Shown here one piece after another: positions 7,710-31,454 of a stretch of 64,000 bases of DNA; the first letter of the stretch is position 1, and each line of letters opens with the position of its first letter. Below the pieces are notes generated by a model. It was not told the DNA's origin. It ran no database searches and saw only the letters and a list, made by a program, of their open reading frames with translations. The position numbers were made by a program, and so were the translations under genes. The DNA is from a plasmid, in the NCBI RefSeq assembly GCF_988243305.1, contig NZ_OZ547137.1; one strand, given 5' to 3'.

Positions 7710-8017
7710 TTTCTGCTATTTACAGGCATGAACTCATCAGAAAAAAGATAATTGAGAAAAACAGCCATAAACACACATGTAAATGTCACCTTCAGATATA
7801 ATCTGACAAGTGTCACTTGTTCTGATATATCTGCCTTCTTCCATTCATGAATAATTTCAGCGAGAAAACTGTCAGGTGCAAAATAAAATAATATAACGGG
7901 CACCATTACAAGACCAAAAGGAAATAAATTTAATGTTCTGCTTATCAGCCTGAGCAGCACAGCACCTATTTTCCTGAGGTGCTGAATATATTTACTGTCC
8001 ATTGTTGCCATTTTCAT
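7706..8017 (-). CDS. Hypothetical small membrane protein between traU and trbC
   Basis: 103-aa ORF, translationally coupled to trbC, hydrophobic segments; no family recognised. Confidence 0.35.
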   Translation of the reverse strand: MKMATMDSKYIQHLRKIGAVLLRLISRTLNLFPFGLVMVPVILFYFAPDSFLAEIIHEWKKADISEQVTLVRLYLKVTFTCVFMAVFLNYLFSDEFMPVNSRK

Positions 8018-8040
8018 TTCCTCTTATTCATTAAAATGAT

Positions 8041-9033
8041 TTACAGGAATACACAGTTACGTTTACGCCACATCAGGTAGCCGAAGTTTTTCTTTGTGTT
8101 GGGCGGATTTTTTCCCGTCTCCCAGCGCATCACACTGCGCCCGAACGGATGGCACTGTCCGCTGTCCGGATACATATTCACCATCTGATAACGCCAGCGT
8201 TCTTTGGGCAGGATTGGGGACGGATATTCATTACAGACGGCGTTATTTTTCCCGATGGTTTCCATAATCATGCCCTGACGGTGCAGCTTGAATGCCATGC
8301 GTTCACTGACCAGCAGGGAGGACTGCAACGGACTGGACTCATTACTCACCCAGCCATTGAACGGGTACATACTGCCCTGCGAACCGGCACACCAGAACAG
8401 AACATCGAGAGGCATATTAAAGGCACTGGCAATGGCATCTGCTGCGCAGGCCCCCTGTGCTATCGGATTGGCAAAAATGACGGCTTCCGGGTTGAGAATG
8501 GTGGTAAGGCTGCTGTCCGTCCAGGTGGGGTCGATTTCAGAAAGATAAGCGATATCCAGGTCACCACCTTCCAGACAGCCCAGCGATGTGATGATGTTCA
8601 GCCAGTACGTCAGCGGGTATTTGTACCAGTGAACGTGATAGAACGCCCCGTTCACCTGCTTCTCATCCTTTTTCGCCGTTCCCTGTGCCGTTTTACCAAA
8701 AGCCGGCAGGCTGAAGCCCAGGTTCACCATGCATCCCGGTGACCGGGTGACGTCCGTCAGCGCCATCGGCTCCCAGTAACCAATGGCCAGCCCGATACGC
8801 CTGAACAGCGGCGGCGGTGCCGGACAAATCTGAATAGGCATCGACGGGTTCGCCGTGTCGGGGACCTTACCCTGACTGACTTTGATACTGCCCAGCGAGA
8901 GCGGGAAAATACAGCTCCAGCAGATATCCGTGATCGGGTTTACAAAACGCCCCTCACAGGCAGAATCCGCAGACGCTGCAGGGACATGACCGGCGAGAAG
9001 GAATAACATCAGCAGCCACAGTCTTCGCTTCAT
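8041..9033 (-). CDS. traU: TraU, pilus assembly / DNA transfer protein
   Basis: 330-aa ORF with signal peptide; recalled TraU similarity and synteny. Confidence 0.9.
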   Translation of the reverse strand: MKRRLWLLMLFLLAGHVPAASADSACEGRFVNPITDICWSCIFPLSLGSIKVSQGKVPDTANPSMPIQICPAPPPLFRRIGLAIGYWEPMALTDVTRSPGCMVNLGFSLPAFGKTAQGTAKKDEKQVNGAFYHVHWYKYPLTYWLNIITSLGCLEGGDLDIAYLSEIDPTWTDSSLTTILNPEAVIFANPIAQGACAADAIASAFNMPLDVLFWCAGSQGSMYPFNGWVSNESSPLQSSLLVSERMAFKLHRQGMIMETIGKNNAVCNEYPSPILPKERWRYQMVNMYPDSGQCHPFGRSVMRWETGKNPPNTKKNFGYLMWRKRNCVFL

Positions 9034-9776
9034 TTTCTGCCCTCCTCTGCCGGAATAAATTCCACCTTCAGGAAGCGATCGCCGGGAACGGCGCTCACCC
9101 GTGCCGGGACCTGATCAATGCCGAGGCGCTGGCAGAGCACACCGTTCTGGTCAAAGTAAACACGGCTGTCCAGAGACTTCTGCATCTCCGGGATACTGCC
9201 CTGCACGAGGATAATTTTGCTCTCCAGTGTGGGCGGCGTCTGGCGTTTCATCCAGGCCACCTGCGCCGGATCATCGCCATTGATGAAATACAGCGTCTGG
9301 TTAAAAGGAACATACTGCAGCGGATTCATCACTTCACCCTGACGGGCAAACACCCGCCCTTCGTTATCCCGGATATCCGCAGCCAGTCTGACGGACGGGT
9401 CAAACAACCGGCTGCCGTATTTCTCTGTGCGTCCGATACCGGGCACGGCAGGGGGCCGCAGACTGTTACGGATCACCCGCTCCTTAAAGGCATCCATTTT
9501 CCGGCCCATCTCACCGGACTGCTCCAGTGCCGTCAGGCGCTGCATGATCACCGTCAGCATGTCCGGCTCCTTTACCGGCCACAGATCGCCCCAGGTGCCA
9601 AGATCGGCGGCGGCCACACTCTGCCCCCATATCAGCAGGGCAATCAGCCCCCGGCATCTCATGGTTCCGCCCTCATTCGCCGGGCAATATCCTGCTGGAT
9701 TTCCCGGGTGATATCCGGTGCCCCCTGTACCACGGCAGGCGACACCAGAATGACCGCGTGGTGTTTCTGCTGCCAT
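9030..9776 (-). CDS. traW: TraW, pilus assembly protein (start probably internal, near 9662)
   Basis: ORF overlaps trbI; signal-peptide-like MRCRGLIALLIWGQSVAA; synteny. Confidence 0.8.
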   Translation of the reverse strand: MAAETPRGHSGVACRGTGGTGYHPGNPAGYCPANEGGTMRCRGLIALLIWGQSVAAADLGTWGDLWPVKEPDMLTVIMQRLTALEQSGEMGRKMDAFKERVIRNSLRPPAVPGIGRTEKYGSRLFDPSVRLAADIRDNEGRVFARQGEVMNPLQYVPFNQTLYFINGDDPAQVAWMKRQTPPTLESKIILVQGSIPEMQKSLDSRVYFDQNGVLCQRLGIDQVPARVSAVPGDRFLKVEFIPAEEGRK

Positions 9777-10045
9777 GCCTGCAGGCTGGCTTCCAGTGCC
9801 GTGTTAAAACGCGCTGAAAGGGCTTTTGACTGTGCTTCTGACAGTTGTTTCTGACTGGCGCTGTCAAAAAACGCATCCACGGTCTGTTTCATGTTGAAGG
9901 CGGCAGTCACCGGTGCGTTCAGTCTGACAATGCCATAACTGATGGCTGCGTTCAGTAACACCATTGCCAGGCATCCCGGCACGGTCCACCACCAGTGGCT
10001 GCGTCGGGGGGCTGTAACGTCAGTCGTTTTTTGCGTTGTGGTCAT
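9659..10045 (-). CDS. trbI: TrbI, inner-membrane pilus retraction protein
   Basis: 128-aa ORF with N-terminal TM, between traC and traW. Confidence 0.7.
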   Translation of the reverse strand: MTTTQKTTDVTAPRRSHWWWTVPGCLAMVLLNAAISYGIVRLNAPVTAAFNMKQTVDAFFDSASQKQLSEAQSKALSARFNTALEASLQAWQQKHHAVILVSPAVVQGAPDITREIQQDIARRMRAEP

Positions 10046-19799: not shown

Positions 19800-20150
19800 C
19801 TTTTTTGAACATAAAATAAAGTTAATTTCGGAACACTAAAATTCATAATACAAACAGGGACGCACCGCTAGCAGCGCCCCTAGCGGTATCCTATAAAAAA
19901 ACACACCGCGCCGCTAGCAGCGCCCCTAATATAAAATGATGTTTTTTATAAAAATAGTCAGTACCACCCCTACAAAGCGGTGTCGGCGCGTTGTTGTAGC
20001 CGCGCCGACACCGCTTTTTTAAATATCATAAAGAGAGTAAGAGAAACTAATTTTTCATAACACTCTATTTATAAAGAAAAATCAGCAAAAACTTGTTTTT
20101 GCGTAGTGTGTGGTGCTTTTGGTGGTGAGAACCACCAACCTGTTGAGCCT
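19800..20150. promoter_or_regulatory. oriT: oriT, F-type origin of transfer with nic motif and TraM/TraY/IHF-type repeats
   Basis: GTGTGT/GGTGCTTTTGGTGGTGAGAACCACCAACC at 20106-20140 matches the F nic region as recalled (nic about 20111^20112); two copies of GCTAGCAGCGCCCCTAG (19867, 19912); inverted repeat GGTGTCGGCGCG...CGCGCCGACACC (19977-20015). Confidence 0.75.
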
Positions 20151-20201
20151 TTTTGTGGAGTGGGTTAAATTATTTACGGATAAAGTCACCAGAGGTGGAA
20201 A

Positions 20202-20712
20202 AATGAAAAAATGGATGTTAGCCATCTGCCTGATGTTTATAAATGAGATCTGCCATGCCACTGATTGCTTTGATCTTGCAGGCCGGGATTACAAAATAGA
20301 TCCTGATTTACTGAGAGCAATATCATGGAAAGAATCCCGTTACCGGGTTAATGCCATCGGTATTAATCCGGTAACGGGATATGGCAGCGGACTGATGCAG
20401 GTAGATTCCCAGCATTTTAACGAACTGGCCCGCTATGGAATTAAGCCGGAACATCTGACAACAGATCCCTGCATGAACATTTATACCGGTGCTTATTATC
20501 TGGCAATAGCCTTTAAAAAATGGGGCGTCTCCTGGGAGGCCGTTGGTGCATACAATGCCGGATTCAGGAAGACCGAACGCCAGAACCAGAGACGTCTTGC
20601 CTACGCATCAGAGGTTTACCGGATTTATACCAGGATAAAAAGCAGTAAAGGTATCCGGATTCCGGTCACGAAGAAATCACTTCCAGAAATTAACAGCGTG
20701 CAGAACAATTAA
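20202..20712 (+). CDS. GeneX/orf169-type lytic transglycosylase
   Basis: 170-aa ORF from [12 protein letters not shown] with signal peptide; first gene after oriT as in F. Confidence 0.8.
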
Positions 20713-20959
20713 TCTTACAGACATTGTCAGATACCGGTTATGCCGCAAAAGCGGCATGAAGGCTACACACAAAAATATCATATGAGTGACAATGCTGACT
20801 GGCCGAAGCCCCGCGAAGCGGGAACCCATCTTATATATACCCGGTAACTGCGCAGCCTCCTGCCAGACCATTTTTCGCGGGCACAATATTTACAGACAAC
20901 CGGAAAGCCGGTTGATGGAATTGAGGTATATCAGACGACACAGCGATGCCGAAGAATGA

Positions 20960-21003
20960 TAATATAAGTAAAGCCCCGAAAAATTTTCGGGGCTTTACTT
21001 ATA
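20960..21003. terminator. Bidirectional intrinsic terminator (long perfect palindrome)
   Basis: AATGATAATATAAGTAAAGCCCCGAAAA / TTTTCGGGGCTTTACTTATATTATCAT between convergent genes. Confidence 0.5.
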
Positions 21004-21006
21004 TTA

Positions 21007-21909
21007 TCATGACTTCCACTTTCTGAACTGTTCGGCAATCACCCATAACGCCTTGTTGATTCTTATATCACCATCAATACCTGTAATGGCTCTTGTCCTG
21101 GTATTTTTCCCGGAGGCACTTCGCCCCGATAATCCACCTTTTATCATATTCTCCTGAACCCGCTGCCAGGTTGTCCAGAGATCGTTCTGTTTATCTTCCC
21201 GACGACGGGGAGTAATTATTTGTTCAGGCGTCACTGGCGTTTTATTTTCATCTTCATACCTGACCATCAGTGCAGCTCTGCCAAATAAATGTTGCTCGTC
21301 ACTGTTAAGATGAATTTCTTTCATCGCCTCCATATTATCAGTGACCTTATCAAAGACACCGAGCACTTCATACGCTCCCTCGATAACCTGCCCGACAATA
21401 TCACCTTTATGTGGAACACGGATTTCGCCAAAATTATTTCCGCACACCAGGCCATTTGTGCAGACAAAACGAAAAATTCCGGGGATCATCTGATAACTGG
21501 ATGAACCATCATGTGAATTAAGCAGGATAATTTCAGGAACTTCCTGCCCGTTAATATGCCCTTCCCTGCGAAGGCGTAACATATGTTTACTGTATTCGCG
21601 GCGTCCCAAATCACGAACCCGACTCTGACAGGCAAAGAATGGCTGGAAACCTTCATCACGTAACTTATTGATGATATTGATTGTTGGAATATACGTATAA
21701 CGTTCACTCCGGGACTCATGTTTATCACCGGAAAATACCGAAGGCACGAACTGCATTAATTCATCATCCGTTAAAGGACGTTCACGACGGATGGAATTAT
21801 ACCGACCAAAACGGGAAGCTAATCGCATAACAGCTACTCCTTTATGAAAGGATAAATTTAATAAAAAATTTTTCCGCTTAATATCATCCCTCCCGATCTC
21901 CATTAACAA
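21007..21909 (-). CDS. Conserved leading-region protein of unknown function (about 300 aa)
   Basis: 300-aa ORF downstream (minus sense) of the first Frpo-like repeat; family not confidently recognised. Confidence 0.5.
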   Translation of the reverse strand: MLMEIGRDDIKRKNFLLNLSFHKGVAVMRLASRFGRYNSIRRERPLTDDELMQFVPSVFSGDKHESRSERYTYIPTINIINKLRDEGFQPFFACQSRVRDLGRREYSKHMLRLRREGHINGQEVPEIILLNSHDGSSSYQMIPGIFRFVCTNGLVCGNNFGEIRVPHKGDIVGQVIEGAYEVLGVFDKVTDNMEAMKEIHLNSDEQHLFGRAALMVRYEDENKTPVTPEQIITPRRREDKQNDLWTTWQRVQENMIKGGLSGRSASGKNTRTRAITGIDGDIRINKALWVIAEQFRKWKS

Positions 21910-22187
21910 GATTGCAACAATCAGGAGGGATATTCATCACATCCGGTCAGCAGATCGCCCGGATATCGAGGCCGGCACGCTTAATCTGACGCAGGAACTG
22001 TTTGAAGTGATCGGCTTCCGCAATGTTGATATGGCGGAACTGCGTATCCACACCCCGGCTGAGCGCGTAGCTATAGCTGAAGGCCATCTTTTCCGGTGTT
22101 TTTTTCCCTCCCGGCAACAAGAATCGTGTACGACGCGGTGTTAACGTGGATATTTCGGGTACTCATCCAGCTTTCTCCTCTCTCTGG

Positions 22188-22720
22188 TTTTCAGCCCCCA
22201 TCATCTGTTGAGTTTCGGGAGCCGCGGTTTTGACGTTTTGCGGGGACCTGCTCTTTGTTCCCTCCGGTATTCACCATCACCTGTTTGAGAACCTTCGCCG
22301 CAAGGGGCATCACTGCCACGGCCTGACGCACCTGTCCTGGGCAGAACGCAAAATTTTTTACCGGGTTTTGGGTAAAAAATTTTGTGGGCTGTTCATTTAC
22401 CCTGGACAGTCAGTGCGGCAGGTTGTGGCTGTATCAGCCCCCGGCGACAGGGGCTTAAACAGGTGAATGGCACCGGACACAACAACGGGCAGGGACCCGC
22501 CGCAACGACGTGAAGCGCGGTTTGCGAAACGGCGTTGCGCCTTACATCCCGGCGGCCTTTTGCCGGGATGCAGGGAGCGCAGGCCACGGCGCGACAGAGG
22601 CGGCGCGACCGGAACGGTCGCTGCAAGCCCGGGGTTTCGCGTCAGGGATGGAAGCCCGCCAGGGGGACGCCCGGAAAAGACACTGCCAGGAGAACAACAA
22701 AACAGACAATAATCAGGGCA
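22188..22720. repeat. Frpo/ssi-like single-strand promoter repeat, copy 1
   Basis: Starts CAGCCCCCATCATCTGTTGAGTTTCGGGAGCCGCGGTTTTGACGTTTTGCGGGGACC; near-identical to copies at 27508 and 30850. Confidence 0.6.
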
Positions 22721-23016
22721 GCAGTAATCAGAGTCAGAACAGGAGGAAAAAGAGAATAATCAAAGAGAAGGTGATGTGATTTCTGACAGGTCATAAACAG
22801 AGAAGGCGGGGGAAAAGAACGGGCGCCGCAGGCGCACGTTCATCCCCGTTCCCGGAGGGAAACGGCCTTCCTGGCAGTCTGGTTGTTCATGCCCGTACAA
22901 TGCCAGCAAGGAGAAAGGGGCCACCGGCGAACCAGCAGCCCCTTTATAAAGGCGCTTCAGTGCAGTCAGACCAGCATCAGCCCTGAAAAGGCGGGCCTGC
23001 GCCCGCCTCCAGGTTG

Positions 23017-23175
23017 CTACTTACCGGATTCGTAAGCCATGAAAGCCGCCACCTCCCTGTGTCCGTCTCTGTAACGAATCTCGCACAGCGATTTTCGTGT
23101 CAGATAAGTGAATATCAACAGTGTGAGACACACGATCAACACACACCAGACAAGGGAACTTCGTGGTAGTTTCAT
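23017..23175 (-). CDS. hok: Hok-family toxin (52 aa) of a hok/sok type I TA system
   Basis: Minus-strand translation gives [52 protein letters not shown]; below the 60-aa track cut-off. Confidence 0.85.
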
Positions 23176-23233
23176 GGCCTTCTTCTCCTTGCGCAAAGCG
23201 CGGTAAGAGGCTATCCTGATGTGGACTAGACAT
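23021..23233 (-). CDS. mok: Mok, overlapping reading frame controlling hok translation
   Basis: 70-aa ORF overlapping hok in another frame and starting upstream. Confidence 0.55.
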
Positions 23234-23250
23234 AGGGATGCCTCGTGGTG
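23176..23250 (+). ncRNA. sok: Predicted Sok antisense RNA region
   Basis: Antisense to the mok start / hok leader; placed by analogy, boundaries approximate. Confidence 0.3.
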
Positions 23251-23454
23251 GTTAATGAAAATTAACTTACTACGGGGCTATCTTCTTTCTGCCACACAAC
23301 ACGGTAACAAACCACCTTCACGTCATGAGGCAGAAAGCCTCAAGCGCCGGGCACATCATAGCCCATATACCTGCACGCTGACCACACTCACTTTTCCTGA
23401 AAATAACCCGCTCATTCAGGCTGTTTACGGGTAATCTGTGTGATTGTTGCCGCA

Positions 23455-24174
23455 TCACGCCGCCTCCCGGAGTTTGTTCGGCACCATCCACCGCTCCATC
23501 TCACGGACAGCGTGACCGGCCTCTCTTGCTGCAAGACTGGCTTCCGCAATAACCTGCCAGAACGGCATATCCTGCCACTGCCAGCGTTCCATTCCGGCCA
23601 GTGACGGGAAACGCTCGCCCCACAGCCAGAACAGGGTTTCCAGGTCATGCTCTGCCACCCGGTCACTCCAGCGTGCATGCCAGCTTCCGACTGTTTCCGG
23701 CGAATGGAATGCCAGTTCGATTTCAGCCTGAGCGACCAGCGCCTGGTACGCACGGGCTTTCTGCTCTGCCTCCCGTGCCTGCTGGCGGCTGTACTTCTGC
23801 ATGACCAGCGCGGATTTATGGCGACTGCGCTCCCTGACGCGGAACCGCACCGACGGAAACAACCGCTCTGCTGCATCACCGGGAAGGGGAAGGAGGCAGA
23901 CCTCGCCCTGTGTTTCAATCAGCACATCGACGGCATACAGCCACTGAAGACGGTTGCCGTGCAGTTCTTCTGCGGTCAGGGACGGCATGAAAAATCGCAG
24001 GTCAGACAGCGATATCCTGCGGCTTCCGTTCAGACAGCGGAAAAACGCCCCCGCATACGGATATTCCGCCAGCGTGTTACCCTGATGGCGGCGTTTTTCT
24101 GTCTCCGCCACCGCCTGCCATGCGGCCTGTTGCTCTGTGCAGAGGGGAACCAGTGCCTGTGAACGTACGCTCAT
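23455..24174 (-). CDS. psiA: PsiA
   Basis: 239-aa ORF immediately downstream of psiB, overlapping its stop. Confidence 0.85.
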
Positions 24175-24608
24175 GCCTGACCTCCTTCCGCCATCAGGAT
24201 ATGGATGATGTCATTAACGCTGTACCCCTGCGCATCCAGTGACGCCGCCAGTGCCAGTGAATGGCTGACGGCTTCCGGTGCAAACCGCCGCTGCACCTGA
24301 ACCACCGCAAACGGCTCACCACCGGCATTCACCAGAACCAGCACCCAGACCTGAGAGACATCGCCCGGTGAACATAACGCCAGGTGAAAACGTTCGTGGG
24401 CAGGCGTGAAACGGACCTGGACGGGGAAAAATCCGCCAAACTCGCTGCCGTACTCGCCGTTCATCGTCCAGTTGTCCGGCGCATCCAGTTCCCGCATCAC
24501 GGCGTGTGTCAGCTCACGACGTTCATCACTTCCGGCAGCCCGGATATCTTCATATTCCTGTGCGCTCATGGTCTGTAATACATTCAGGGTCAGTTCAGTT
24601 TTCATCAC
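24171..24608 (-). CDS. psiB: PsiB, plasmid SOS inhibition protein
   Basis: 145-aa ORF ([26 protein letters not shown]...); classic leading-region position. Confidence 0.9.
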
Positions 24609-24659
24609 AGTATCTCCCTTGCTGCCGCCCCGTCTCCGGCGGGGCGGTGTGGTTGTTCA

Positions 24660-26624
24660 TCAGGCGGCATCAGCCAGGTTATCGGTGCGTTCAGTGGCAT
24701 CTGTCTGTGGATGTGGTGCACACATCCAGCCTGGAACCCAGCGGTTGTCTTTCATATTGTGCTCTGCATGTTCAGCCGCATCACCTTTCTTCATCTTCTC
24801 CGCGTCCCGTGCGGCACCGGACAGCCCTGCCTCATTCAGGGCTGCGATAATCTGCGGCTTTTTCAGGTGTCCGAAGAAGTTTGCTTTTGTCGGCTGCCAC
24901 CAGTCACGCATGTGAAAGCCGATGGCGCTTTCCAGCGAGTCAAGCGGACTGCGTGACGTGTGACCACACTCGCGGGTCTGGACACCGTTAAGACTGCACG
25001 CGGTACAGAAGCTGAGCAGGGATAACAGCACCTCCTGGCTGAGTGACAGGAACGTCGTCATATCCCGTTCCCATCCTTCCGGCAGCAGGGCAGCAAAACG
25101 AGAGTGTTCTGCCATCAGCGCCATGAATGCGGCACCTTCCTTCCCCGACGGTGCATCGCTGGTCAGCGCATAATGCTCACATTCCAGGCGAATTCTGGCG
25201 GGACTACTATGCGCTTTGCTGCCAAACACATTCAGGCAGAGCGTCCATGCCAGCAGTGTCAGGGATTTGTCCGGTTGCTGCATCAGTGCCGCCTGGACTG
25301 CCAGCGTGCGTTCGGAAGACATTTTCGTCAGCAGTGGCAGACTGATTTCCTCCACTGACGCTTTTTCCTGCACCTGTTCCGTGCGGTCAGCGTCGTCAGC
25401 CGCATCATCCTCACTGCGTAACTGCACACCACGCTGGACACATACGTTTCCATAACGCCAGGACACCACCACTCCACCTCCGGCACGCATCTCCGGCGTC
25501 CACGCTCTGACCTTCGCCATGCAGCGCATCAGCTTCATTTCTGCTTCCAGCAGGTCAGATTCCTCACACTGGTTTTCCATCGCGTCGTAACGCGTCATCA
25601 GTTCGTTCAGGCGTTCTTCTTCCGCCTCCGTCAGCACCGCTTCCGGCTCCGGCAGACAGCGGTATGTTCCGGCATCCTCACGGCACTCACCGACTGGCTC
25701 CATGCGCCCGGCGCACCATTCCCAGCCTTCTGCTTCCCGAAGGTGTTCAGCAACAGCCTGGAGTTTTTCCAGCAGGGCGGCATCGAGCGCCACGCAGTCC
25801 ACATAGCCACCCTCGTCGTCGCTGAACAGGTCAGTGCGCAGTTCATCTGGCGAGAAGGCATCAGCCCCCACAAAGCGGAATTTACTGTTCCCCGCCACCG
25901 CCACTTCACTTTCGGTCACCAGACGACGAATGGTCTGCGCTTCCGGTTTACCGCCCCATCCCGACTGGCAGGCGGCTTCAAACACCTGCACCTGACGCGC
26001 GGTGTCGTTCTCCAGCGCCAGCGCCTGACAGTGTTCGGTGGTGATGCGGTCTTCTGCCAGCGCATCGAGGATGACAGGCGCAAGGTCAGCCAGTTTCAGC
26101 ATTCGCTGGACATGGCGGGGTGAATAGCCCAGCAAGTCACCGATTTGTGCAGGTGTTTTGCCTTCCTGCGCCATTGCGCGGAATCCGGCAATCTGTTCGG
26201 CAGGGTGCATATCCCGACGATGACCGTTTTCAGTCATTGATGCGGCAGTCGCCAGTTCCTGCGGGATGACCTTTACGCGGACAGGTCAGTCAGCCGGAAT
26301 GATGCCACGCTCTGCCAGCATGTTGAGTGCTGCCAGTCGGCGACCACCTGCGGCGACACCGTAACGGTCACCAGGCAGGGTATGCACGACCAGATTCTGC
26401 AACAGGCCAACGTCCTTAATGGACTCCGCCAGTTCGCTGACGGACTCTGCGGAATACGGCACCGTGCGCACATTCAGCGGTGATTTAATCAGTGAAGCCA
26501 GCGGCACACTCACTTCCTCCGTCTGCGCCAGCAGGGCAGACAGGACTGTTTCCTGCGTTTTTACAGATTTAAGGCTTGCTTTGCGGGTGGTTTCTGGTTC
26601 ACACTTCGTTACAGGCATAATCAT
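24660..26624 (-). pseudogene. ParB-like nuclease-domain protein interrupted by an in-frame TGA
   Basis: 112-aa (26286-26624) and 525-aa (24660-26237) ORFs are in the same frame, separated by one TGA at 26286-26288; N-terminus has a ParB-type motif (VAAGGRRLAAL). Confidence 0.6.
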
Positions 26625-26676
26625 CCCCTTATAATTGCTTATGTCCTGCCGGACGTTCGCGCGTCCGGCACCTCTC

Positions 26677-26937
26677 TTACTTAAGAATCCCGAAATCCCT
26701 GATGTACCGGTTCATCCAGTACCCGGCACAGTCCTCAAAATTCCAGGAGCGCCAGATCAACGTGCCATCCTGACGGGCAACCAGGCGAAAATGCGTTCCC
26801 TGATCATCCTCGATAAAGACATTCCGGTACTGTGCGGCAACGGCTTCAGCCTGTTCGCGGGTAAAGGAGCCGTCAGGCAGCCCCTGAAATATTCTGAAAT
26901 ATTCGCTCATCCTCATCTCTCCGGTGATGCCCCGCAC
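26677..26937 (-). CDS. Small conserved leading-region protein (86 aa)
   Basis: ORF between ssb and the ParB-like gene. Confidence 0.4.
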
Positions 26938-26965
26938 TGGACGGGGCGGTTGTCACTGTCTTAGT

Positions 26966-27487
26966 TCAGAACGGAATGTCGTCATCGAAGTCATACGCGG
27001 GTTCAGACGGCTGCTGAGGCTCCGGCTGCGCGGCCTTACGTCCACGGCCTTTCGTTTTCGCGCCACCTTTTTTCGTCGCGTCAGCACTCTGTGGCTGCCC
27101 ATTCTGCTGAGGCTTCGGTTGCGCCTGAGCGTTCTGCTGTGGTGCACTCCCCAGCATCTGCATGGTGCCCGTGGTCTTAACAAGAATTTCAGTGACGTAA
27201 CGGGTGATACCGTTATCTTCCCAACTACGGGTACGGAGTTGCCCCTCGATGTAGACCTGCTCGCCCTTGTGCAGATATTCACCGGCCACTTCCGCGAGCT
27301 TGCCGAACAGCACCACGCGATGCCATTCTGTCTGCTCCCGAATCTCCCCCGTCTGTTTGTCACGCCAGCTTTCTGACGTAGCCACCTGCAGGTTTGCCAC
27401 TGCGCCCCCGTTGGGGATGTAACGGACTTCCGGATCATTGCCCAGACGACCGACAAGAATGACCTTGTTAATGCCACGAACTGCCAT
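26966..27487 (-). CDS. ssb: Plasmid single-stranded DNA-binding protein
   Basis: [35 protein letters not shown]-fold N-terminus, Gln/Pro-rich linker, acidic DDDIPF tail. Confidence 0.92.
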
Positions 27488-27507
27488 GATGTATCTCCTT
27501 CTGTTGA

Positions 27508-27962
27508 TGTTTTCAGCCCCCATCATCTGTTGAGTTTCGGGAGCCGCGGTTTTGACGTTTTGCGGGGACCTGCCTTTTGTTCCCTCCGGTATTCACCATC
27601 ACCTGTTTGAGAACCTTCGCCGCAAGGGGCATCACTGCCACGGCCTGACGCACCTGTCCTGGGCAGAACGCAAAATTTTTTACCGGGTTTTGGGTAAAAA
27701 ATTTTGTGGGCTGTTCATTTACCCTGGACAGTCAGTGCGGCAGGTTGTGGCTGTATCAGCCCCCGGCGACAGGGGCTTAAACAGGTGAATGGAACCGGAC
27801 ACAACAACGGGCAGGGACCCGCCGCAACGACGTGAAGCGCGGTTTGCGAAACGGCGTTGCGCCTTACATCCCGGCGTCTTTTTGCCGGGATGCCGGGAGC
27901 GCAGGCCACGGCGCGACAGAGGCGGCGCGACCGGAACGGTCGCTGCAAGCCCGGGGTTTTCA
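27508..27962. repeat. Frpo/ssi-like single-strand promoter repeat, copy 2 (upstream of ssb)
   Basis: About 450 bp matching copies 1 and 3 up to the GGGGCTTAAACAGGTGAATGG...CGCTGCAAGCC block. Confidence 0.6.
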
Positions 27963-28140
27963 CGCATCGGACCGTAGCGACAGCCCGAAACCGCGCCAGC
28001 GGGTTCGGCGGAGACTGGCAGGTGCGCCAGCAGCTGCCTGTCGGAGTCGGGCCTGACGACCGGATGCCGCCAGGCAGCCGGGAGCCGAAGGTGCGCCCGG
28101 CAGACAGGACAACACTGCAGTAGTCAGAATCAGAGCGGCA

Positions 28141-28186
28141 GGAAAAAGAAGAGCAGTAGCAGTAGCAGTAGCAGTAGCAGTAGCAG
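28141..28186. repeat. Hexanucleotide microsatellite (AGCAGT)n
   Basis: About six tandem units read directly from the sequence. Confidence 0.8.
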
Positions 28187-28365
28187 GAACAACAACATCA
28201 TCAGTAACAGACAAATGACAGGTCTGAAAAGACAGAAGCCCCCATCAGAACGTCCGCGTAATGAAAGGGGCGGCGCGTGAGCGCGGCCCCTTTCAGCGCC
28301 ACCGGCGCGCGGTCTTTTCCCTGCGCGGGCAGACGGGCATTTATCCTCCCGCCAGCCCTGTGTCA

Positions 28366-28929
28366 TCAGGCACGCAGACGAATAATCATCGTCGGGACAT
28401 CGGTATAAGCAAACGTGCCGCGCGGCAGCTCCTCGCGGACGTCAGAAAACGGTAACAGCTTCTCCTGCTGGCGCGGCCCGTTCAGACAGACGGCAACCAG
28501 CACGCCACCCGGACGCAACAGGGAAAAAGCCCGCAGGATATGCCGGATATCCTGCCCGTGACTGAACGGCGGATTCATGATAACCCGGCTGTAATACTGC
28601 ACCGGCTGCCATTCCATGAAGTCGCCACACTGAACCCTGACACCGTTAAAATTTTCCCGCAGATACCGGACCAGCCCGCTGTTAATCTCCACCGCATCAC
28701 ACATGGCCTCCGGCGCGGTATCCCGAATCGCCCGCAGTATGGCCCCGGTGCCGGCAGAGGGTTCCAGAATGTGATCACGGTTGCTGATTTCCGCCAGCGT
28801 CACCAGGCGATCACAGACCGGGGCAGGAGTCACAAAAAGCTGAGATTCAGCCCGGATTTCAGCAACCGGCGCGGCGTTATCCAGCCTTGCACGCATCAGC
28901 CGGATACGTTCTCTTAACTGACTGTGCAT
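28366..28929 (-). CDS. Orphan amino-methyltransferase (N6-adenine or N4-cytosine)
   Basis: 187-aa ORF with motif I (EPSAGTGAI) and motif IV (NPPF); no cognate endonuclease adjacent. Confidence 0.7.
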   Translation of the reverse strand: MHSQLRERIRLMRARLDNAAPVAEIRAESQLFVTPAPVCDRLVTLAEISNRDHILEPSAGTGAILRAIRDTAPEAMCDAVEINSGLVRYLRENFNGVRVQCGDFMEWQPVQYYSRVIMNPPFSHGQDIRHILRAFSLLRPGGVLVAVCLNGPRQQEKLLPFSDVREELPRGTFAYTDVPTMIIRLRA

Positions 28930-28975
28930 GTCATTATCTCCGTCATCCCCCGGGGATTTCCCGGGGGGATATACC

Positions 28976-30337
28976 TTATTTCTGTGGGATTTCCGTGATT
29001 TTCATGTCGGTAATATACACATTCACCAGGCGGAAATTATTGTCCATTGTGCGGCGGTAGCGGTATGCCCCGTGGTCTTCTGTCTCTGCCACACTGCGCA
29101 CGGCCTTACAGTCCCGGGGCAGGGCGGCCCACTGCGCCTTTGTCATTTCCCGGAAACCTTCCCCCGGATAGTTGACTACCGGCGGACGCTTCGCGGCCTG
29201 ACTGGCGACGGCAGCCTCTTCTGCCGATGGTGCTTTGTAGTCCGTGATGCGATCGGGCGTCACTTTCATCGTGCCGCTGTACCCGAGAAAACTGTAATTC
29301 GGCGTTGTGACTGAACTCACCGCCCCGTTGCTTTTGTTCACGCGGATGATGGTCAGCCACTCGCCCCGGCTGAAAACCTGTCCGCCCGGCTCAAAATCCT
29401 GTGTCCGGGTAACCACGCCGCCGCTTTCGTCCAGCATGGCACGCTCATAGATCAGGCGGTTCTGATAGTGGTTAACCCAGCGTTGCTGATGCTGAATCTG
29501 CCGTTCATGACAGCGGATCGCAATTTCGCGGGCCTGCTCCGTGGTGATGATGTCATCATCCAGGGCCGACCATAACGATCGACTTCCTTCATACTGGCTT
29601 TTTTCTGCCGGGCGCGGATACGTATCCAGCGGGAAACAGGCGCTGATATGGTCATGACTGCTGATGAGTTTTGCCATATTCAGATCCAGCGATTCAGCCC
29701 GCCACATCGTCAGATATTTCTGCGACTGCGCGATGGTCTTTTCAGCCTTGCGCAAATCAGCTTCGATTTTTTTGATACGACGCCAGCGAACGTCCGGGCG
29801 TTCTTTATACTTCGCGTGAAGCAGTGCCGACCGCGCCCGCTCCTCCCAGTATTCCGCACGTTCAAAGAGCATCACGGCACGTTTCATGCCGTTTTCAATA
29901 CGCTGCGCATCACGACGGGCGCGGCGTTCGCTGTGATGCCCCACAAGAATGGGCTGACCGGGCGGGATCATCGCGGCCAGTCTTTCCACTTCATCAAGTG
30001 CCTGTGCGGATTCACTGGCCCGCTTTCCGCTGTATCCGGTAAACCGCTCCGCCCGTGCTTCCTGACGTTCAGCGAGCGTGCTGTCTTCATCCTCAATCTC
30101 TCCGGCAAGTGAGAGGAGCACGTCTTCCCGGCCCGGTGTCCAGGCTGGCGCGACAAACAGCGCCTGTTTGGGTGCCCAGCGAAAACCGGCATCATGCACT
30201 TTTTTATACGTCTCCGGGTCAAGACGTGACGCGGCATACAGGCGCAGTTTGTTGTCATCCGGTGAGTAGGTCGCGCGGTACATCTGCACAGGGCTGGCGG
30301 CTTCCGGGGCGGTCATGGTGATTGCTGCTAATGTCAT
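28976..30337 (-). CDS. Conserved leading-region protein of unknown function (453 aa)
   Basis: Large ORF with charged coiled-coil middle region; family not confidently assigned. Confidence 0.5.
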   Translation of the reverse strand: MTLAAITMTAPEAASPVQMYRATYSPDDNKLRLYAASRLDPETYKKVHDAGFRWAPKQALFVAPAWTPGREDVLLSLAGEIEDEDSTLAERQEARAERFTGYSGKRASESAQALDEVERLAAMIPPGQPILVGHHSERRARRDAQRIENGMKRAVMLFERAEYWEERARSALLHAKYKERPDVRWRRIKKIEADLRKAEKTIAQSQKYLTMWRAESLDLNMAKLISSHDHISACFPLDTYPRPAEKSQYEGSRSLWSALDDDIITTEQAREIAIRCHERQIQHQQRWVNHYQNRLIYERAMLDESGGVVTRTQDFEPGGQVFSRGEWLTIIRVNKSNGAVSSVTTPNYSFLGYSGTMKVTPDRITDYKAPSAEEAAVASQAAKRPPVVNYPGEGFREMTKAQWAALPRDCKAVRSVAETEDHGAYRYRRTMDNNFRLVNVYITDMKITEIPQK

Positions 30338-30388
30338 AAAATGTTCTCCTTCCGTCTGTTGCCGCCCCTCGCGGGGCGGCTCACCTCA

Positions 30389-30619
30389 TCAGTTAAAAGC
30401 GCGTTTCAGTTCGAGTGTGCGGAGCACCTGCCCGAAGGCCGTGTTTTTCATGGCGGGGATGTGTACACCACGCCCCCGGTGAAAACTCCGGGCTATGTGT
30501 CGCCCGAAGGCTTTCAGCACGGGGTCAATTTCCGGCGCGGGGATGTCTTCGCGTCTGAAACGGGGATGACGGCGGGGCTTTACAGCCGCTGCGGAAGGTG
30601 AAACAATGCTTACAGTCAT
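30389..30619 (-). CDS. Small basic hypothetical protein (76 aa)
   Basis: ORF immediately downstream (minus sense) of Frpo-like copy 3. Confidence 0.3.
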   Translation of the reverse strand: MTVSIVSPSAAAVKPRRHPRFRREDIPAPEIDPVLKAFGRHIARSFHRGRGVHIPAMKNTAFGQVLRTLELKRAFN

Positions 30620-30849
30620 AAATGGATTCCTTATGACAGTTTGGTAACAGTGCCTTAAAGACTGGTTGCACAGTCTCTTCGGCGTGGATTAAGCAGGTCC
30701 CTGACCTGCTTTTTTCATATCTGCGTCTGACGTTCTCCGGTGTATTCCTCCTTCTGTTCCTGCGTTCTCATTACCTGCCAGCAGGATGCTGACAGAACAC
30801 ATAAATGCGTATTGCCGGAGCCTGAAATAAATCCTGATTTTTAAAGAAC

Positions 30850-31380
30850 ATCACCCGTTGAGTTTCGGGAGCCGCGGTTTTGACGTTTCGCGGGAACCTG
30901 CTGCTGTATTCCCTGTGGTATGAACTTCACCCGTTTGAGAACCTTCGCCGCAAGGGGCATCACTGCCACGGCCTGACGCACCTGTCCTGGGCAGAACGCA
31001 AAATTTTTTACCGGTTCTTGGGTAAAAAATTTTGTGGGCTGTTCATTTACCCTGGACAGTCAGTGCGGCAGGTTGTGGCTGTCTATGCCCCCGGCGACAG
31101 GGACTCATACGGGTGTGTGGCACCCGGCAGGCAATGAGCAGGGACCCGCTGCAACGACGTGAAGCGCGGTTTGCGAAACGGCGTTGCGCCTTACATCCCG
31201 GCGTCTTTTTGCCGGGATGCCAGGAGCGCAGGCCACGGCGCGACAGAGGCGACGCGACCGGAACGATCGCTGCAAGCCAGGGTTTCGCGTCAGGGATGGA
31301 AGCCCGCCAGGGCGGAGACAGCTTCGCTGGCTCCGTTCACGACAGCCCGCCCCGCCAGGGGGACGCCCGGGAAAGCCATA
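30850..31380. repeat. Frpo/ssi-like single-strand promoter repeat, copy 3
   Basis: Same core as copies 1 and 2; ends in a purine-rich GAAGAG tract (31385-31430). Confidence 0.6.
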
Positions 31381-31454
31381 AACAGGAGAGGAACGGAAAG
31401 AAGAAGAGGAAGAAGAGGAAGAGTAAGCGCACCGTGAAGGACGTGGAGTAAAAA

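Follow-up and report, generated by a model that had tools for sequence, protein, structure and literature searches.

Leading Region of the IncF Plasmid

The whole stretch of DNA analysed here (the window, 64,000 nt) is the leading region of an IncF plasmid. Its leading-region genes were identified by Pfam matches, and sok was located by Rfam:

20110-20712, + strand, SLT transglycosylase gene
21007-21909, - strand, DUF932 gene
23017-23172, hok ORF, adjoining purine-rich tract 1
23173-23349, sok (Rfam), adjoining the hok ORF
23455-24174, - strand, psiA
24171-24608, - strand, psiB
24660-26237, - strand, ParB-like gene
26677-26937, - strand, DUF905 gene
26966-27526, - strand, ssb
28366-28929, - strand, SAM methyltransferase gene
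28976-30337, - strand, DUF3560 gene

Two observations identify the + strand as the T-strand that is transferred, and thus as the template: the leading genes lie on the - strand, and in related plasmids oriT and traM are found at low coordinates, past the SLT gene. The class 1 single-stranded DNA (ssDNA) promoters Frpo/ssi of F and ColIb-P9 were reportedly described by Masai and Arai in 1997.

Several observations concern the annotation of the region itself. Read in one frame, the ParB-like leading gene comprises 652 aa (24660-26624) and is 90.6% identical to the F homologue located between DUF905 and psiB. An in-frame TGA at 26286-26288 (- strand), at about codon 113, splits it into ORFs of 112 and 525 aa. 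At 30614-30714 on the + strand, Rfam gave a match to AS-pc01, which is antisense to pHK01_035, below the threshold (72 bits vs a gathering score of 79, E = 3e-11). This match overlaps the 5' end of the 76-aa ORF that follows the third Frpo-like copy.

Modular Organization of the Frpo-like Units

Three Frpo-like copies, each of about 450 nt, are present in the window, and in the - direction each directly precedes a block of leading genes. The copies and the conserved elements that accompany them are as follows:

22187-22640, + strand, Frpo-like repeat copy 1, upstream of the ygeA and DUF932 genes
27509-27960, + strand, Frpo-like repeat copy 2, the class 1 ssDNA promoter upstream of ssb (repeat families D1 and D2)
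30837-31290, + strand, Frpo-like repeat copy 3, upstream of the 76-aa ORF, the DUF3560 gene and the methyltransferase gene
22641-22680 and 31291-31375, + strand, alpha module (from alignments)
27961-28105, + strand, beta proximal module, GC-rich, with three small predicted hairpins (from alignments)
28263-28294, distal GC-rich hairpin GAAAGGGGCGGCGCG-TGA-GCGCGGCCCCTTTC, between the methyltransferase stop codon and purine-rich tract 2

The positions agree with those published for Frpo1, which precedes ygeA/ygeB, and for Frpo2, which precedes ssb (PMC9849209). In copy 2, the main hairpin extends over about 27534-27860 and is followed by conserved accessory hairpins up to 27960. When 27500-28270 was folded as ssDNA, the main hairpin reached -202 kcal/mol (z = -10.3). 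A 68-aa ORF is located within this hairpin (about 27513-27719, - strand) and corresponds to a 207-nt CDS in three of the compared plasmids (L008, L010 and L014). Some GenBank records name it 'single-stranded DNA-binding protein', and RefSeq has it as a 'hypothetical protein'; the former label is probably a mis-annotation transferred from the neighbouring ssb.

In the 5'->3' direction of the T-strand, the unit consists of the main promoter hairpin, the accessory hairpins, an alpha or a beta module, a purine tract and a GC hairpin. This terminal, conserved GC hairpin closes the upstream operon. The 145-nt beta module is strongly conserved, with 10 variable columns in 24 sequences. Across plasmids, either module can be found at any of the three Frpo positions, and therefore gene conversion between the Frpo copies is proposed.

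The distal hairpin at 28263-28294 has a pairing probability, P(paired), of 0.82. Related GC hairpins with a core of approximately GCGCG-TCA/TGA-GCGC were found at 22817-22841, at copy 3 of F and in two divergent plasmids (L021 and L022). The latter two came from a scan of species-representative genomes, which yielded 6 loci, a number too small for statistics. Such a hairpin lies distal to every intact purine tract, also in the Raoultella and Entomohabitans plasmids, in which Frpo is about 68-75% identical. Therefore, the repeated unit seems to span about 0.8 kb, well past the published stem-loop. An intrinsic terminator at the distal hairpin was considered and rejected: the consensus scan made no call on the - strand, and the tail is not T-rich.

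Purine-Rich Tracts and the Hexanucleotide Repeat

Between the alpha or beta module and the GC hairpin, the following features were distinguished:

22681-22795, + strand, purine-rich tract 1, the linker of the ygeA/DUF932-proximal Frpo unit (second-ranked purine window; homologous to tract 2)
28106-28215, + strand, purine-rich tract 2, the variable linker of the ssb-proximal Frpo unit (third-ranked 100-nt purine window)
28152-28186, + strand, AGCAGT hexanucleotide microsatellite, x5.8 (Tandem Repeats Finder, score 70, 100% matches)
28188-28202, + strand, mini-repeats (AAC)3 and (ATC)2 adjoining the hexamer array (read from the sequence; variable among alleles)
31376-31422, + strand, purine-rich tract 3, cut by an insertion sequence (top-ranked purine window; contains (GAAGAAGAG)x2.6)

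On the gene-sense - strand, (AGCAGT)n reads (ACTGCT)n. The sequence-only reading had placed this repeat at 28141-28186. The perfect array is indeed present, but it begins at 28152; the 11 nt of the preceding purine run GGAAAAAGAAG account for the earlier start. The 501 nt around the hexamer repeat are 100% identical to the plasmid NZ_KY706108.1.

The purine content of the + strand was ranked by a sliding 100-nt count over the 64 kb (mean 0.483, sd 0.065). The first three places were occupied by tract 3 (31354-31453, 0.80), tract 1 (22672-22771, 0.76) and tract 2 (28132-28231, 0.72). In tract 3, Tandem Repeats Finder detected (GAAGAAGAG)x2.6 at 31400-31422, within a pure homopurine run of 29 nt (31395-31423) that is longer than any other in the window. 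None of 100 dinucleotide-preserving shuffles contained the 30-nt (AGCAGT)5 pattern, and none contained a purine run of 30 nt when one mismatch was allowed. Because the shuffles gave no match and the tracts hold the top three purine ranks, the three purine-rich tracts and the hexamer repeat are real and far beyond chance. A strong triplex (H-DNA) potential was considered and seems doubtful: the mirror arms in the 29-nt run at 31395-31423 are weak (about 10-11 nt with 1 mismatch), and none was found in tract 2.

The tracts had also been described as sitting where each Frpo-like copy loses similarity to the others. They do lie 45-190 nt past the ends of the shared Frpo-like repeat (22636, 27958 and 31285). 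However, they are not simple ends of the repeat unit. Tracts 1 and 2 are homologous (repeat family D3, 85%), the alignments show the tracts to be homologous to one another, in the middle of the linker of a longer unit, and a conserved GC hairpin follows each intact tract; the break in similarity at tract 3 is an insertion, described below. As read from the alignments, the tracts are paralogous purine-rich parts of a variable mosaic linker between the GC hairpin and the conserved Frpo modules.

Folded as ssDNA, the tracts are the least paired parts of the unit, with P(paired) of 0.16-0.45 against 0.63-0.82 elsewhere. Tract 2, which lies outside the promoter stem-loop, has a value of 0.45 vs 0.76 for the main hairpin.

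Length Variation of the Hexamer Array and the Other Tracts

For allele comparison, the ssb-proximal locus was retrieved from 20 other plasmids. (AGCAGT)n was perfect in all 21 sequenced alleles, with n = 1-20; the unit numbers seen were 1, 2, 3, 5, 6, 7, 8, 9, 10, 13, 15 and 20. Among the 19 alleles with n = 1-13, five units were the most frequent (six alleles, including that of the window), while n = 6 and n = 8 occurred in three alleles each. Fifteen units were found in L031, which shares its flank haplotype with the window, and 20 units in L030. The plasmids L006, L008 and L010 carry n = 5, 7 and 9, respectively, on 1,661-bp flanks that are 100% identical, and L002, which is one substitution away from this flank, has 13 units.

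The 241-nt locus was found at a coverage of at least 80% in 1,597 of 5,426 complete E. coli genomes. In 19 full-length matches, sampled down the ranking of these complete genomes, the locus differed from that of the window by -27 to +87 nt, and every difference was a multiple of 3. The differences in locus length were accounted for by the hexamer number together with the (ATC)1-2 and (AAC)1-3 mini-repeats, the alleles of which were (ATC)1 vs (ATC)2 and (AAC)1 vs (AAC)3.

The other tracts vary as well. Between F, L014 and L017, intact tract 3 varies in its GAAGAG/GAAGAAGAG units, in blocks of 18 nt and more. In tract 1, an 18-nt tandem duplication was found in L015 and L017, and there is a 48-nt indel, at which the window has a deletion between CCCGCCAGGG direct repeats. 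All indels seen inside the tracts are multiples of 3 (6n, 3, 18, 48), a pattern shared with coding DNA, although it follows from the sizes of the repeat units.

Thus, the repeats are perfect and highly multi-allelic and change far faster than their flanks. The proposal that the three tracts are candidates for slipped-strand length variation is borne out by the range of n = 1-20, by the 5, 7 and 9 units on identical 1,661-bp flanks and by the variation of tracts 1 and 3. The comparison of unit counts across related plasmids, for which identical lengths in all of them would have spoken against the proposal, gave differing lengths.

It could be argued that the length differences are sequencing or assembly artefacts, given that the lengths are known here from assemblies and that some long-read assemblies are error-prone at repeats. 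However, forty alleles, obtained in many laboratories and on many platforms, show no differences other than whole units or the known 3-nt mini-repeats, the repeats are perfect throughout with clean flanks, and short reads can cover arrays of 6-120 nt. We therefore consider an artefact highly improbable.

Insertions into the Linker

Tract 3 is interrupted by a mobile element:

31423-34132, - strand, IS66-family element with tnpA, tnpB and a truncated tnpC (from sequence and ORFs)

The IS66-family inverted repeat GTAAGCG cuts tract 3 at 31423, and the other end of the element is near 34132. It starts GTAAGCGCACCGTGAAGG after ...GAAGAGGAAGA. The similarity of tract 3 to the other copies ends because of this insertion. 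A target-site duplication was not found: the 8 bp before the element are GAGGAAGA, and the 8 bp after it are AAACCAGA. Therefore, the DNA that was originally upstream is no longer present.

Another IS66-family element, distinct from this one and oppositely oriented, was observed in the purine tract of the ETEC plasmid p557 (L024, NC_014233, at about 19060), where it starts GTAAGCGCATCATTTAAACC after ...GGAACGGAA. Two independent IS66-family insertions in the purine tract may indicate an insertion hotspot.

In L028 (NZ_CP117638, about 7965-9983), a group II intron was found exactly at the junction of the beta module and the purine tract (GGTGCGC^CGGCAGACAGG). Within it, Rfam detected RF02012 (7996-8145) and RF00029 (9905-9981), and an ORF of 372 aa spans 8546-9664. 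On the transferred strand the intron reads in the sense direction, and L019 and L020 have the same junction. A Frpo-like element, a beta module and the group II intron junction were also seen in contigs 124 and 139 of Streptomyces morookaense DSM 40503 (L018 and L019). The presence of enterobacterial leading-region DNA in a Streptomyces assembly looks like contamination.

Coding Potential and Possible Selection on Composition

Small ORFs have been annotated over the tracts, and the following were analysed:

27960-28214, - strand, frame A ORF, 84 aa, TTG start, ...P(AT)5ALLFPAALILTTAVLSC... (PGAP 'hypothetical protein')
22642-22794, frame A paralogue, ATG start, without a Shine-Dalgarno sequence
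28130-28366, - strand, frame B ORF, 78 aa, with a poly-Leu end, overlapping frame A (PGAP 'hypothetical protein')

If these ORFs were genes, the tracts would encode small hydrophobic - strand proteins with a variable-length repeat, and slippage would alter their length in frame. Frame A would represent a paralogous family ending in ...FPGVPLAG...AGFHP and carrying (Thr-Ala)n, and frame B a poly-Leu peptide, possibly toxin-like. Such a function is consistent with the fact that the tract indels are all multiples of 3 and that frame A is open in most alleles and is open and alignable in the three paralogues and the mosaic alleles. Moreover, the frame B ATG (28366-28364) overlaps the methyltransferase stop codon (28368-28366) by one base, as TGATG, and stop/start overlaps of this type can couple the translation of adjacent genes. 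Both frames are annotated by PGAP, and the 84-aa version of frame A belongs to a 951-member cluster, which consists of predicted proteins only. However, homopurine/homopyrimidine sequence can hardly hold stop codons, and so open frames on both strands over the tracts are expected from composition alone. The pyrimidine-rich sequence upstream of every candidate start lacks a Shine-Dalgarno sequence (neither GGAG nor AGGA). The start of frame A varies from ATG in copy 1 to CAG (TTG only) in copy 2 and GTG in copy 3; a premature TGA is found at codon 7 in L026, L027 and L028; and L016, L017 and L023 have a shifted C-terminus owing to 1-nt indels. The start of frame B differs between haplotypes, its N-terminal part is frameshifted in the L006 type, and its poly-Leu stretch ranges from about 2 to 40 residues, a spread that fits a defined membrane helix poorly. 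The two divergent plasmids, L021 and L022, keep the purine tract, but no ORF is conserved in them. The allele differences are mostly non-synonymous, with a few synonymous ones in tract 1; the substitutions are few, as in the beta module with its 10 variable columns in 24 sequences. No Pfam or NCBIfam family was found for the five small tract ORFs, apart from one chance-level match (E = 1), and an Rfam scan of 20000-35000 gave nothing over the tracts (sok and the sub-threshold AS-pc01 match lie elsewhere). The PGAP calls themselves are inconsistent between records, falling on frame A, on frame B or on + strand ORFs. The last of these (WP_000388237.1 of F, which is rich in K/R, and calls of 150-168 aa in L012 and L026) were rejected as genes: their frames are not conserved, and their openness is expected from composition. 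Consequently, the ORFs over the tracts are probably spurious, as compositional artefacts, and we consider it improbable that the tracts encode proteins.

It is also conceivable that the purine tract is a functional part of an extended ssDNA-promoter unit and is selected for its composition, with only its length free. Two versions can be envisaged. On the T-strand, the tract would be an unstructured spacer, unable to pair with itself or with the promoter arms, and pyrimidine RNA would form a weak hybrid with the purine DNA. In the - strand RNA, which would be C-rich, G-poor and unstructured, it would be a candidate rut site loading Rho; together with the GC hairpin, it would halt transcription of the upstream operon before Frpo and the leading genes, and these genes would be kept silent after the plasmid has become double-stranded. 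The tracts being the top three purine windows of the T-strand, with the lowest pairing probability within the unit, agrees with either version, as does a purine feature at a like position in divergent plasmids, ranking first in L021, first and third in the L022 copies and fifth in L029. When 78-nt windows of the - strand RNA were ranked by %C minus %G, tract 3 came first and tract 1 third, with 25 and 14 YC dimers, respectively. A conserved GC hairpin lies immediately upstream of the tract in the direction of transcription, and leading genes have been reported to be silent in donors (PMC9849209). On the other hand, tract 2, with the microsatellite, has only a modest excess of C over G (24 vs 13 of 78 nt) and few YC dimers, one L029 Frpo copy has no nearby tract, and a group II intron parts the module from the tract in L019, L020 and L028. 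A main hairpin of -202 kcal/mol makes an insulating spacer seem needless, and no publication on such a role of the tract was found in the literature search. Nevertheless, purine richness has been kept where Frpo is only about 68-75% identical (L021 and both L022 copies; more weakly at one of the two L029 matches), and this is therefore a hint of selection on composition rather than of pure neutrality. Overall, we regard selection for composition as unlikely. Slightly more doubtful is a wider interpretation, according to which the tract would be a compositionally selected component of an approximately 0.8-kb ssDNA-promoter cassette or, in a less likely variant, a variable-length hydrophobic micro-protein. 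Such a cassette would comprise the GC hairpin, the purine tract, the alpha/beta module, the accessory hairpins and the Frpo stem-loop, and the length variation would be a tolerated by-product. The tract could possibly act in it as an unstructured T-strand stretch or as a Rho-loading site insulating the zygotically induced leading operons from upstream transcription.

Based on the above results, we favour the explanation that the tracts are a slippage-prone non-coding spacer in a mosaic linker, the exact length of which is immaterial, and that the ORFs located there are spurious; on the present evidence this is reasonably probable. Between n = 1 and n = 20, the spacing from hairpin to promoter changes by 114 nt, and therefore the length is argued not to be under constraint.

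Proposed Mechanism of Variation

We suggest the following mechanism for the slippage-prone spacer. The tracts are built of short units with lengths that are multiples of three (AGCAGT, AAC, ATC, GAAGAG/GAAGAAGAG and the 18-mer). Whole units would be gained or lost by slipped-strand mispairing during DNA synthesis, that is, by ordinary register slippage, while the neighbouring modules would be shuffled by gene conversion between the Frpo copies. The T-strand would be copied from a single-stranded template at every transfer, and this may help the instability. Complementary-strand synthesis would run from the tract towards the strongly folded promoter hairpins, a setting that may favour slippage. 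According to a 2026 preprint, ssp2, which belongs to a different class of leading-region ssDNA promoters, stalls complementary-strand synthesis. Hairpin-stabilised slippage, as in CAG repeats, was also considered. It is unlikely, because both (AGCAGT)n strands are unstructured: they fold no better than shuffles, and their centroid structures are unpaired.

Relation to Known Systems

The AGCAGT array resembles bacterial simple-sequence repeats (VNTRs) in being a perfect short tandem repeat with many alleles on near-identical backgrounds and whole-unit changes. In contrast to contingency (phase-variation) loci, it is not placed to switch a gene. It lies about 290 nt from the base of the Frpo hairpin, downstream of the methyltransferase stop codon. 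A gain or loss of 6-nt units leaves any reading frame intact, and promoter elements are not separated by the array; for these reasons, the array does not count as a contingency locus.

With the Frpo/ssi class 1 ssDNA promoters of F and ColIb-P9, the tracts share their position, as they flank three copies on the transferred strand and are inherited and recombined with them. They differ in not being part of the stem-loop with the -35 and -10 boxes and in being predicted to be unpaired. These promoters are treated by Couturier et al. 2023 (PMC9849209) and in PMC12672017, and in the papers examined the tracts are not mentioned.

The - strand RNA over tracts 1 and 3 may be compared with rut sites: it is C-rich, G-poor and predicted to be unstructured, and it is probably untranslated and situated after the last gene of an operon. 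Tract 2 is a poor match. As to type I toxins (Hok, Ibs, Ldr), frames A and B would likewise be short and very hydrophobic, and a genuine hok/sok adjoins tract 1. However, these frames lack a conserved start, a ribosome-binding site, a conserved ORF, a match to an antisense RNA family and homology to a toxin family.

A full-text literature search for the repeat string returned no paper, and the words 'purine' and 'repeat' are absent from the Nature 2024 leading-region paper. The array is thus a VNTR-type simple-sequence repeat in a non-coding linker, for which no earlier description was found in the searchable literature.

Significance

In E. coli, resistance and virulence genes are carried mainly by IncF plasmids. 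The locus belongs to the backbone of these plasmids and is carried by about 30% of complete E. coli genomes. A hexamer that varies on identical flanks is a high-resolution marker for following plasmid transmission, and it is usable for measuring the mutagenicity of conjugative single-strand replication. In RefSeq, hundreds of overlapping 'hypothetical proteins' are annotated over the tracts on both strands, for which composition is probably a sufficient cause. The value of the finding is thus more practical (plasmid typing and annotation clean-up) than conceptual, and biologically it is ordinary. As for the family of ssDNA promoters, the Frpo repeat unit exceeds the usual stem-loop drawing in both length and modularity, with a soft linker that receives an IS66 element and a group II intron. 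If the tract were functional, it would be a new part of the ssDNA-promoter cassette.
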